Shown here one piece after another: positions 34,679 through 37,052 of a stretch of DNA of 64,000 nucleotides. This stretch comes from Candidatus Gastranaerophilales bacterium (lineage in GTDB: Bacteria; Cyanobacteriota; Vampirovibrionia; Gastranaerophilales; Gastranaerophilaceae): NCBI GenBank assembly GCA_944324905.1, contig CALUYB010000002.1, positions 17,834 to 81,833 of the forward strand, in the 5' to 3' direction. Position numbers and translations under genes: made by a program. The stretch's first letter is position 1, and each line of letters opens with the position of its first letter. Under the pieces are notes generated by a model. That model did no database searches. It was given only the letters and a program-made list of their open reading frames with translations, and had not been told where the DNA came from.

Positions 34679-34917
34679 ATACTAAATTGGGACTTGACCG
34701 AAAGTTTTGTTCGGTGTAGATTTATATTGTTGTTTTTACAAAGGCGAGTGGTGCTATCCGAGTGAAACGAGGATATGAGGAATCTCAAAAAACCAATTTC
34801 GCCTGATGAATTGAAAATTGAATAGCAGATTTTGCGAGGCGTGGCAGCGAAGCGAACGCCGTATGCGAGCAAGCCTGTTGAAGGTTGCGAGCCCGCAATA
34901 ATCCAAGAGTAGATTTT

Positions 34918-35002
34918 GGGCGAGTGGCGAAATTGGTAGACGCGCTAGATTTAGGATCTTGTGCAGCAATGCGTGGGGGTTCGATTCCCTTCTCGCCCAC
35001 CA
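34918..35002 (+). tRNA. tRNA-Leu (anticodon TAG), long variable arm, CCA encoded
   Basis: Acceptor GGGCGAG/CTCGCCC. D arm GCGAAATTGGTAGACGC. Anticodon loop TTTAGGA. T loop GTTCGATTCC. 3' end is ACCA. Confidence 0.9.
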
Positions 35003-35007
35003 TACAA

Positions 35008-35031
35008 AGAGGGTCAAAGACCCTCTTTTTT
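35008..35031 (+). terminator. Rho-independent terminator of tRNA-Leu
   Basis: AGAGGGTC AAA GACCCTCT followed by TTTTTT. Confidence 0.8.
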
Positions 35032-35737
35032 AATGCTTAAATTAAATAAACGCGTCATCCTGAACTTGTTTCAGGATCTTATTAGTAATTGTCTAGAGCA
35101 TAAAGTGGATAAGACCCTGAAATAAATTCAGGATGACAGGTTGAGTGTTCAGGGTGACAGGTTGAGTGTTCAGGGTGACAGGTTGGCAATTCAGGGTGAC
35201 CTATTTACTCGAAAACCCCCTCTTTTTTAATGCTTAAATTAAATAAACGCGTCATCCTGAACTTGTTTCAGGATCTTATTAGTAATTGTCTAGAGCATAA
35301 AGTGGATAAGACCCTGAAATAAATTCAGGGTGATAAGTTGGGTGTTCATGGTGACAGGTTGATAATTCAGGGTGACAGGTTGGGTGTTCAGGGCGTCAGG
35401 TTGTAATTCAGGGTGACCTATTTACTCGAAAACCCCTCTTTTTTAATGCTTAAATTACATAAACGCGTCATCCTGAACTTGTTTCAGGATCTTATTAGTA
35501 ATTGTCTAGAGCATAAAGTGGATAAGACCCTGAAATAAATTCAGGGTGACAGGTTGGGTGTTCAGTGTTACAGGTTGGCAATTCAGGGTGACAAGTTGGT
35601 AATTCAGGGTGACAGGTTGGGTGTTCAGTGTTACAGGTTGGCAATTCAGGGTGACAGGTTGGGTGTTCAGTGTTACAGGTTGGCAATTCAGGGTGACATA
35701 TTTACTTAAAAACCCCTCTTTTCTAATGCTTGAATTC
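35021..35737. repeat. Nested tandem-repeat array: three units (197, 216 and 280 bp), each with two palindromes and a run of 21-bp direct repeats
   Basis: Unit boundaries CCCTCTTTTTTAATGCTTAAATTA occur at 35021, 35218 and 35434, plus a degenerate fourth boundary at 35714. There are 17 phased copies of TTCAGGGTGACAGGTTGNNNN, starting at 35127, 35324 and 35540. Palindromes are ATCCTGAA-N5-TTCAGGAT and ACCCTGAA-N5-TTCAGGGT. Confidence 0.95.
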
Positions 35738-35789
35738 TATTCCCCACTTATGTAATTTATTTTTTACCCCTTTATCTTATTATCTGATA

Positions 35790-37052
35790 ATGCAAAGAAT
35801 TATCAGAAACACTCTTTTAAATTATCTGCCCAAAGATTTGATAACCGAGCAAAATGTTAATCCGTTGCGAATTTATGAGCTAAATAATGCTGATATTAAA
35901 AATGGTAAAATAATTTACCTCATGCAAAGAGAAATCCGCCCTTTTGACAATTTCGCACTTCAATTTTGTCAGGAAATGGCTGCTAAATTGGGCATGCCAT
36001 ATAAAATTATTTGTCCGAAATTTTCTTGCGATTATATGCCAAAAGAAAATTTTATAAACAATCAAATTGAGCATGTTAAAGGTGAATTTTTAAAAAAGAA
36101 TATCGACTTTAGTCTTTTTATTGGCAACAGTTCTGAGCTTTTTAAATATTTGCAAAACGAACAAATTGCAATGTTGATTGTTGATTTTAGTCCTATTTTA
36201 AATCGAGATAAGCTAAAAAAATTTCCATTTAAAGTATATGAGGTTGACTCGCATAATATAATTCCTGCACGCTTTTTGTCAGATAAACAAGAGTATGGCG
36301 CATCTACAATCAGAAGAAAAATCTATAAAAATATTTACCCGTTTTTTACAAAATATAAAGAAAAATCACCTATATCACCCTACTTGCAGGATTTTATAGA
36401 AAATAAACTGCCATATTATGCAAAATACCGAAATGACCCGACAAAAAATGTTCAGTCAGGATTATCAAAATATTTAAATCTGGGCTTTATTTCCTCTCAA
36501 AGAGTTGCTCTTGAAGTTTTTAGTGCAGATGTAAGTGATGAAAACAAGGAGGCTTTTTTTGAAGAATTAATTGTACAAATGAGTCTTGCAGACAACTTTT
36601 GTCTTTATTGCAGTGATTTTAAAAGCTTAAAATGTATACAAAATTGGGCAAAAAATACAATTTTAGAACATAAAAATGATATTAGGGAGTATATTTACTC
36701 AACTAACGCCCTTGAGGAGGCTAAAACTCACGACAAGCTTTGGAATGCAACGCAAAAACAACTTGTGTGCGATGGTGTAATCCATGGGTATTTAAGAATG
36801 TATTGGGCAAAGCAAATTGCAAAGTGGACAAAAACCGCTCAAGATGCACTTGATGTTGCAATTTATTTGAATGATAAATATGCATACGACTCACCCTCAT
36901 CAAACGGTTATGCAGGAATTTTGTGGTCGATTGGTGCTTTGCATGATAGAGCTTTTGTAAATCGCTATTTGACAGGCAAAATCAGAACCATGACATATAA
37001 ATCTATAAGCAAGAAATTTGATATAAATAAATACATTGATAAATACCAATAA
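35790..37052 (+). CDS. phr: Class II deoxyribodipyrimidine (CPD) photolyase
   Basis: IYLMQREIRPFDNFALQF matches the class II YWMxRDxRxxDNWAL block. The C-terminus has LWNATQ...HGYLRMYWAKQIAKWT. The ATG at 35790 is preferred over the TTG at 35730, which lies in the repeat boundary. Confidence 0.85.
   Translation: MQRIIRNTLLNYLPKDLITEQNVNPLRIYELNNADIKNGKIIYLMQREIRPFDNFALQFCQEMAAKLGMPYKIICPKFSCDYMPKENFINNQIEHVKGEFLKKNIDFSLFIGNSSELFKYLQNEQIAMLIVDFSPILNRDKLKKFPFKVYEVDSHNIIPARFLSDKQEYGASTIRRKIYKNIYPFFTKYKEKSPISPYLQDFIENKLPYYAKYRNDPTKNVQSGLSKYLNLGFISSQRVALEVFSADVSDENKEAFFEELIVQMSLADNFCLYCSDFKSLKCIQNWAKNTILEHKNDIREYIYSTNALEEAKTHDKLWNATQKQLVCDGVIHGYLRMYWAKQIAKWTKTAQDALDVAIYLNDKYAYDSPSSNGYAGILWSIGALHDRAFVNRYLTGKIRTMTYKSISKKFDINKYIDKYQ

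Follow-up and report, generated by a model that had tools for sequence, protein, structure and literature searches.

Two described bacterial systems come close to the repeats considered here. CGTC-tagged repetitive extragenic palindromes (REPs) carry a CGTC (or TGTC/CCTC) tag, an 8-9-bp stem that begins with A and T, a loop of 4-5 nt and a short unpaired tail. Most of them form head-to-head dimers that can fold into a larger hairpin. They lie mostly just downstream of coding regions, and many of them have been argued to be transcribed; no dedicated transposase has been assigned to them, and no REP-associated tyrosine transposase (RAYT) was found flanked by them (Di Nocera, De Gregorio and Rocco 2013, BMC Genomics 14:522, PMC3733652). 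The second system is the Ssn family of small GIY-YIG proteins (CDD cd10448; ~94 aa), which are site-specific endonucleases of single-stranded DNA (ssDNA). Ssn proteins bind NTS/SRM hairpins only as ssDNA and cut a few nt 5' of the tag. SRM repeats typically stand on both sides of the ssn genes, and the proteins modulate transformation in Neisseria (Chenal et al. 2025, Nat Commun 16:2388, PMC11893778). Here we analyse a stretch of 64,000 nucleotides (the window) from a Candidatus Gastranaerophilales genome, in which a tandem array of three hairpin-bearing units adjoins a tRNA-Leu gene. We argue that this array is very probably a cluster of CGTC-REP/SRM hairpins resembling a bacterial interspersed mosaic element (BIME), and that these hairpins serve as DNA partners for the one Ssn-family nuclease that the genome encodes.

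Four Ssn proteins have been characterised biochemically. Those tested do not bind double-stranded DNA (dsDNA), and SsnA does not bind RNA. SsnA cuts its site when the two stem halves are supplied separately or are joined by a long loop, and it digests synthetic concatemers of first halves in vitro. The SRM search motif of the same study was built from 29 genomes and is a search tool, not a functional definition (PMC11893778). The literature on COG2827/UPF0213/YhbQ yielded nothing relevant, and the 2006 phylogenomics paper on GIY-YIG proteins makes no mention of such repeats. When the literature was searched by sequence string, the 15-mer CTGAACTTGTTTCAG appeared in no paper, and 11-mers were swamped by barcode primers for cytochrome c oxidase I (COI). 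Throughout, G000 denotes the genome holding the window (1.66 Mb, 34% G+C, 99.5% estimated completeness), G005 its sister species, C-numbers contigs and L-numbers retrieved loci.

Results

Hairpin units of the array

An earlier note on this DNA, made from the sequence alone, had described three units of 197, 216 and 280 bp beside tRNA-Leu (starting at 35021, 35218 and 35434), each with two palindromes followed by 4, 5 or 8 copies of a 21-bp repeat with one 20-bp step. It had also described a 42-bp superperiod in unit 3, in which variants 'a' and 'b' alternate, and structured repeats with inverted ends like those of a miniature inverted-repeat transposable element (MITE). All of this is seen in the sequence (Table 1). 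No transposase, integrase or cas gene lies near the array, as the note had also stated, and its suggestion that the array binds a protein is probably right. Each of the three head-to-tail units starts with the 3' half of the tRNA terminator plus ~10 nt, and the direct repeat that bounds every unit, CCCTCTTTTTTAATGCTTAAATT, is that 3' half. Tandem Repeats Finder reports a period of 216 with a score of 892. Rfam returned only chance, microRNA-like matches, and the array matches no described RNA family.

Every unit contains one hairpin A, GTCATCCTGAA-CTTGT-TTCAGGATC, and, after a conserved spacer, one hairpin B, GACCCTGAA-ATAAA-TTCAGG(G/A)TGAC, which is followed by the tags, TTCAGGGTGAC, in 4, 5 and 8 copies (units 1, 2 and 3) at 21-bp spacing. 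The tag variants of unit 3 run in the order a b c a b a b d. Allowing up to 3 mismatches, the window holds 15 copies of the tag 17-mer where 0.06 would be expected. Hairpin A is tagged cGTC-ATCCTGAA on the + strand, and hairpin B, ~35 nt away on the - strand, is tagged tGTC-ACCCTGAA. Each ~200-bp unit is a head-to-head heterodimer with its tags outward and without a gene.

A and B are inverted copies of each other that differ at two stem positions, and each difference is compensated within its own hairpin, which argues that each hairpin has been selected to fold alone. When a unit is folded as ssDNA, the minimum-free-energy structure is one long A:B hairpin (z = -4.0 and -3.3).

A hairpin family in the genome and across phyla

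A genome-wide motif search, which the earlier note had proposed, proved decisive, placing the motif at ~22 loci in G000 and in many phyla. The core motif occurs 102 times in G000, in 22 clusters, and these clusters are mosaics of the window's modules. A tagged-hairpin finder recovered ~83 intact tagged hairpins, among them 39 with the stem ACCCTGAA, 32 with ATGCTGAA, 5 with ATGCCGAA and 4 with ATCCTGAA; three of the last four lie in the window. The commonest stem of type A is ATGCTGAA and that of type B ACCCTGAA. The stems ATCCTGAA, ATGCTGAA and ACCCTGAA are all 8 bp long, with C, not T, at the second stem position in type B. Genome-wide, the base preceding GTC is T in 66 cases and C in 57, the loops are CTTGT (48), TTTAT (27) and CTCGT (7), and the tail is C plus T/A.

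We also looked for exact copies of the 25-nt hairpin B in one genome per prokaryotic species and found them in at least 120 DNA stretches. The hosts among the matches listed include Pedobacter and other Bacteroidota, Sphingomonadales, Nitrospirota (Thermodesulfovibrionia), Spirochaetes (Treponema), Endomicrobium, candidate-phyla bacteria and Gastranaerophilales/Melainabacteria. In almost all of these listed matches hairpin A lies 12-90 nt upstream of B, and many of the copies sit directly after stop codons.

Around the isolated copies at C2:160137, C7:4210 and C7:7096 no flanking direct repeat was found, and the 23-bp direct repeat is peculiar to the window locus. We also considered a MITE of a DDE transposon and rejected it, as the fixed short target-site duplication at every copy is absent at isolated copies.

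Several further features of the family were observed. At C7:4150-4300 of G000 a head-to-head dimer (GTCATTCTGAA...TTCAGGGTGAC) apparently lies within an open reading frame, like the RPE/CGTC repeats found within genes of Rickettsia. A subset of hairpins is interrupted, at one fixed point where the 3' arm begins, by 45-60 nt of inserted DNA, as in GTCATGCTGAATTTATTT[gactgcttttgccaaaatctttgattttgtgcaaaatgtccctatccggg]CAGCATC (G000:C1:125660-125850, C1:207640-208130, C8:31019-31563 and C18:4130-4400; also L010, L027 and L124). G000 has 16 copies of such inserts, of two types, and unrelated inserts occupy the same position in Pedobacter and Lutibacter. Nested insertions seem to target the hairpin loop. 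G+C-rich modules (...GCGAAGCTTGAAAGCAAGCGAC...; 11 core copies) adjoin many hairpin clusters, as at G000:C1:99486-99740, C1:122749-123000, C1:177429-177680 and C10:60-200, and a related patch lies at ~34830-34895 in the window, upstream of tRNA-Leu.

The candidate partner nuclease

Three genes of G000 match GIY-YIG, namely uvrC, a YhbQ-like gene and a 95-aa single-domain gene on contig C4 (Table 1), whose product we call the C4 protein. This last gene is bracketed by hairpins: several of type A lie upstream, and one of type B, together with first halves (see below), lies downstream; YhbQ-like GIY-YIG genes have no such hairpins nearby. At ~20 homolog loci in relatives, GTCAT–palindrome–ATC stands before the gene and GAT–palindrome–ATGAC after it. 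The palindrome cores differ between lineages, and the GTCAT...ATGAC frame is constant. Given the hairpin–gene–hairpin layout of this cassette, the units of the window are A–spacer–B miniatures of the ssn cassette that lack the gene.

As a proxy for homology to SsnA itself, we used the proteins encoded beside an exact NTS consensus in metagenome loci. The C4 protein is 48-54% identical to these proxy proteins, with E values of 1e-27 to 3e-32; the criterion of PMC11893778, E < 1e-10, applies to SsnA itself. One of the NTS-adjacent proteins has an NTS on both sides of its gene. Residues Y8, Y19 and E66 of the C4 protein have the same spacing as the catalytic Y6, Y17 and E64. The hairpin and the gene also co-occur: among 41 relatives, 20 have both hairpin B and a strong homolog of the gene, 15 have neither, 4 have the hairpin only and 2 the gene only (Fisher p = 6e-6, with kinship among the 41 ignored).

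A separate observation concerns the conservation of the nuclease segment. Among species whose photolyases share 52-95% identity, the ssn protein is 96-98% identical (G000:C4:122100-124100 compared with L150, L151 and L154), and the genes flanking ssn are also unusually alike, at 87-93% nucleotide identity versus 68-85% at the photolyase locus. This is only suggestive of horizontal transfer or recent exchange of the whole segment, or else of a slowly evolving region.

Arrays of first halves

Read on the tagged strand of hairpin B, the 21-mers of the window are first halves of that hairpin, each with a GTC tag, the 5' arm ACCCTGAA and a ~10-nt C-rich linker. There are 3, 4 or 7 extra first halves 5' of the complete hairpin B in units 1, 2 and 3, one every 21 nt. 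Since they are extra first halves stacked 5' of a single complete hairpin, the 21-mers are not repeats in their own right. The genome has 61 such arrays. A complete hairpin terminates 50 of them, and in most of the remainder the terminal hairpin is split by a nested insert. The majority have 2 tags (37 arrays) and others 3 (17), 4 (5), 5 (1) or 8 (1); the 5-tag and 8-tag arrays, the two largest of the genome, are both in the window, together with one of the five 4-tag arrays. The spacing is 21 nt in 32 cases, 22 in 37 and 23 in 17, and therefore does not keep a strict helical phase, as had been supposed from the 21-bp step in the window.

Elsewhere this layout is found on 10 of 261 perfect hairpins among the cross-phylum matches listed, for instance in Sphingomonadales, Dadabacteria, Magasanikbacteria and Mesonia. 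That is ~4% of the hairpins in those matches, versus ~60% of the hairpins in this genus. Neither first-half arrays nor the CTGAA core are mentioned in PMC3733652 or PMC11893778. Because cleavage of split sites by SsnA has been published, each stacked first half could, by analogy, pair with the single 3' arm and be cut, giving alternative cut sites.

Other readings and the history of the locus

The hairpins might function chiefly at the RNA level, stabilising the 3' end of transcripts of tRNA-Leu or of upstream genes or terminating their transcription, a role that is often assumed for CGTC-REPs and that is compatible with a partnership with a nuclease. Hairpin A scores as terminator-like three times. 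The position of published CGTC repeats just downstream of coding regions, and the case made for their transcription (PMC3733652), would fit such a role, as would the many cross-phylum copies directly after stop codons. However, tRNA-Leu is already served by a terminator of its own, ahead of the array, SsnA does not bind RNA (PMC11893778), and action as RNA would explain neither the first-half arrays nor the link to ssn. As the main function of the hairpins we consider it improbable.

The earlier note had also offered an array of iterons or other sites bound by a dsDNA-binding protein, regulating replication or the photolyase gene, or a contingency switch. The regular 21-bp spacing of the half-sites here and a copy number that varies by species (1 versus 3 units; 4 versus 4, 5 and 8 tags) speak for such a reading. 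The iteron proposal did not survive the dispersal of the motif over ~22 loci and many phyla. In addition, ~60 such arrays lie in unrelated contexts at 21-23-nt spacing, no rep gene is present, the array lies upstream of the best promoter-like site for the photolyase gene (35763-35791), and the tested Ssn proteins do not bind dsDNA (PMC11893778). We regard regulation through dsDNA as very unlikely.

Several independent MITE insertions at a tRNA-proximal, att-like target would account for the 23-bp direct repeat from the tRNA terminator that bounds each unit, which resembles a target duplication. They would also fit the finding that 4 of 24 multi-tag clusters lie <600 nt from a tRNA, versus 0.63 expected, an enrichment that is uncorrected for the intergenic bias of both features; most hairpin clusters, however, are not near tRNAs. 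The comparison with G005, whose photolyase is 95% identical, points elsewhere. There, tRNA-Leu is followed at the same site by one unit with 4 tags and then by the photolyase gene, and this unit is flanked on both sides by CCCCTCTTTTTTAATGCT, the same direct repeat as in the window. The window's three units have 2 substitutions in common that are absent from the G005 unit, and they differ from one another at 2/117 positions. This indicates that the tripling postdates the species split, with one insertion followed by tandem amplification in place of the serial insertion that had been proposed; unequal exchange between the flanking direct repeats is the likely route. Moreover, the units, which include flanking non-hairpin DNA, are 98% identical, and independent insertions would not copy flanks. 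Repeated insertion is thus highly improbable.

Beyond this locus, the clusters of G005 lie at loci orthologous to those of G000 and differ from them in inner structure, the two species having ~92% nucleotide identity. On this comparison the cluster loci are old and their content is dynamic. Nearly all G005 clusters map to G000 clusters, and no clean presence/absence pair revealing an empty insertion site was found. The synteny of the photolyase gene differs in more distant species.

A short-read assembler could have falsely stacked dispersed copies into a tandem, given that the source is a metagenome-assembled genome and that contigs of relatives often break at hairpin clusters. Such an artefact is unlikely, indeed scarcely credible. 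The ATCCTGAA stem variant is locus-specific, and G005 independently has one such unit at the same site. Furthermore, both the variants specific to unit 2 and the junction between units 2 and 3 occur as exact unitigs from at least 3 chicken-gut metagenome runs that are independent of one another (for X2 and X3, exact unitigs span 35218-35333 and 35304-35463). These are short contigs only, and the tag count of unit 3 (8) is that of the assembly alone. Some unitig joints hinted at fewer units; they were out of register, of low likeness and probably from other repeat copies, and were set aside. In relatives, contig ends lie within a few hundred bases of clusters (G005:C34, G012:C103, G010:C78 and G005:C9, C25, C27 and C30), and hairpin repeats are probably a main cause of assembly breaks in the genus.

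Least credible of all is a REPIN/BIME mobilised by a RAYT, an IS200/IS605-type Y1 transposase, as are the GTAG-tagged REPs of Pseudomonas and E. coli: the long ssDNA hairpin of the inverted doublet, the REPIN-like layout and the mosaic clusters resemble such a system, but PF01797 (Y1_Tnp) has 0 matches in the 99.5%-complete G000 where 6 control genomes were positive in the same search, the tag is CGTC and not GTAG, and no RAYT was found flanked by CGTC repeats in the published survey (PMC3733652).

Features of the window and neighbouring genes

The coordinates of the array, of its modules and of the genes discussed are collected in Table 1. The neighbouring genes encode an RsmE-like methyltransferase, a CCA-adding/poly(A) polymerase-type enzyme, a class II photolyase and an FMN reductase. 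The match of the photolyase-like protein to TIGR00591 covers residues 198-419 and lies below the curated cut-off of the model; its N-terminal half is divergent, and a search against Pfam gave no match even at E = 10.

The DNA on the other side of tRNA-Leu also contains duplications. A segment at 34743-34917, upstream of the gene, opens with a copy of the 5' end of the tRNA (GGCGAGTGG...). Its counterpart in G005 (L130 1-200) consists of two ~92-nt tandem repeats, each beginning GGGCGAGTGG, and in G010 (L134 1-215) a tRNA-Ala is preceded by two repeats, each beginning with the 5' end of that tRNA (GGGGGATTAGCTCAGT). Among the metagenome unitigs upstream of tRNA-Leu there are variants that skip 110-204 nt. 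These upstream segments could be partial tRNA duplications left by a tRNA-targeting element.

Table 1. Positions of the array, its modules and the genes discussed (window coordinates unless a contig is given)
Feature	Position	Strand	Remarks
tRNA-Leu, anticodon TAG	34918-35002	+	ARAGORN; Rfam tRNA 53.9 bits; neighbour of the array, outside the repeat
tRNA terminator stem AGAGGGTC-AAA-GACCCTCT plus T-run	35008-35032	+	From the sequence
Unit 1, 197 bp	35021-35217		Boundary repeat, hairpin A, spacer, hairpin B, 4 tags at 21 bp
Hairpin A, unit 1	35053-35078	+	Tag cGTC, 8-bp stem ATCCTGAA/TTCAGGAT, loop CTTGT, tail C
Hairpin B, unit 1	35114-35138	-	Complete tagged hairpin GTCA(T/C)CCTGAA-TTTAT-TTCAGGGTC
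First-half array, unit 1	35127-35200	-	Tag GTC, 5' arm ACCCTGAA, 10-nt C-rich linker
Unit 2, 216 bp	35218-35433		Modules as unit 1, with 5 tags, one step 20 bp
Hairpin A, unit 2	35250-35275	+	
Hairpin B, unit 2	35311-35335	-	
First-half array, unit 2	35324-35417	-	
Unit 3, 280 bp	35434-35713		Modules as unit 1, with 8 tags, 42-bp 'ab' superperiod
Hairpin A, unit 3	35466-35491	+	
Hairpin B, unit 3	35527-35551	-	
First-half array, unit 3	35540-35697	-	
Terminal copy of boundary repeat, degenerate	35714-35737		CCCTCTTTTCTAATGCTTGAATT
Class II photolyase-like gene	35790-37052	+	TIGR00591 E 2e-109; neighbour only
ssn-type gene, 95 aa	G000:C4:123735-124022		PF01541 E 1.3e-15, no other domain; outside the window

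Discussion

The association of gene and hairpin described here is the already published system (2013, 2025). The unit belongs to the described CGTC-REP/SRM family with its partner nuclease, an outcome of the kind that the earlier note had named as refuting its own observation. Several points nevertheless weigh against reading the array as a cluster of Ssn partner hairpins. Four relatives have hairpins and no detected ssn gene, 2 of them being incomplete assemblies, and in G000 the ssn gene is on a different contig from the array, with no physical link. The published SRM motif, HGTCWYN(0-2)YYVSBRHN(0-5)WNVSBRGN(0-2)RNCYNB, matched 0 CTGAA-core hairpins; in a search of the genome it gave 1 chance match, and it did match NTS itself. 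Because the motif misses these hairpins, a specificity of the C4 protein for the CTGAA core is extrapolated, and that this protein would cleave the hairpins of the window is something we infer from its homologs. A PDB sequence search with the nuclease returned no match. Slippage, by which the 21-mers may have grown partly as 42-bp 'ab' pairs, and unequal crossing-over are only plausible routes to the first-half arrays and to the 18-23-bp direct repeat that flanks the units. As to current mobility, no fresh insertion was seen when the clusters of G005 and G000 were compared.

Judging from the four tested homologs, the nuclease would bind the hairpin only in ssDNA, for example during replication, repair or DNA uptake, and would nick it a few nucleotides 5' of the tag. 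The ancestor shared with G005 had one unit, flanked by the 18-23-bp direct repeat derived from the tRNA terminator, and in the present lineage this unit became three, presumably by unequal recombination between the direct repeats. To our knowledge no strand-transfer chemistry is known for Ssn, and for this reason the copying mechanism of Ssn repeats is not established.

We raise one further proposal, which we ourselves find doubtful, namely that the first-half arrays are a direct footprint of Ssn action and not of random slippage. Their origin would then lie in recurrent nicks 5' of the tag, after which the DNA would be re-synthesised or the template switched on the hairpin. In that case they would provide the first evidence from a genome of how CGTC repeats grow, and they would represent natural multi-cut substrates like the synthetic concatemers cut by SsnA. 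The genus would also become a natural model for the proliferation of CGTC-REPs without a transposase.

The reading of the array as Ssn partner hairpins adds the Melainabacteria, non-photosynthetic gut relatives of cyanobacteria, to the hosts of Ssn and its hairpins. It also reveals that the published SRM motif misses a very widespread variant, the CTGAA core, in Pedobacter, sphingomonads, Nitrospirota, spirochaetes and candidate-phyla bacteria. For annotation, the hairpins matter in that they translate into recurrent spurious peptides and break short-read assemblies. Finally, the ordered first-half arrays and the recent amplification from one unit to three offer a testable handle on how CGTC repeats multiply without a transposase.

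REPIN/BIME–RAYT systems, reportedly described by Bertels and Rainey (2011), Nunvar (2010) and Ton-Hoang (2012), provide a first comparison. They share with the present system inverted doublets of short tagged palindromes that form one long hairpin, mosaic clusters, a single-copy partner gene flanked by repeats, and clusters that persist at the same loci across species. In contrast, the partner here is a GIY-YIG nuclease and not an HUH/Y1 transposase, and the tag is CGTC where theirs is GTAG.

The CGTC-REPs are closer. The hairpins described here have the same unpaired (C/T)GTC tag, 8-bp stem, 5-nt loop and short tail. They lie between genes, often just after them, with no associated tyrosine transposase, and head-to-head dimers predominate, here as heterodimers with different stems. 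The nearest of the described families is CGTC-2, judged by stem and loop length only. The survey of these repeats found head-to-tail arrangements negligible and clusters rare, whereas clusters and head-to-tail first-half arrays dominate here, and the Melainabacteria are not among the five phyla given for CGTC repeats.

With regard to Ssn/SsnA of Neisseria meningitidis, the differences are of host, core and arrangement. The host here is a gut Melainabacterium and not a proteobacterium. The core is CTGAA/TTCAG, AT-richer than the published palindrome and missed by the SRM motif. First-half arrays at 21-23 nt accompany 60% of the hairpins, an arrangement on which PMC11893778 is silent. SsnA is known biochemically and the present member from its sequence alone. 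Nevertheless, both are single-domain GIY-YIG proteins of ~95 aa whose catalytic Tyr/Tyr/Glu residues are spaced alike, and in both systems inverted tagged hairpins (CGTCAT, palindrome, ATC) stand on either side of the gene. In both, tens of hairpin copies are found without the gene, scattered as well as clustered, and repeat and gene co-occur across genomes.

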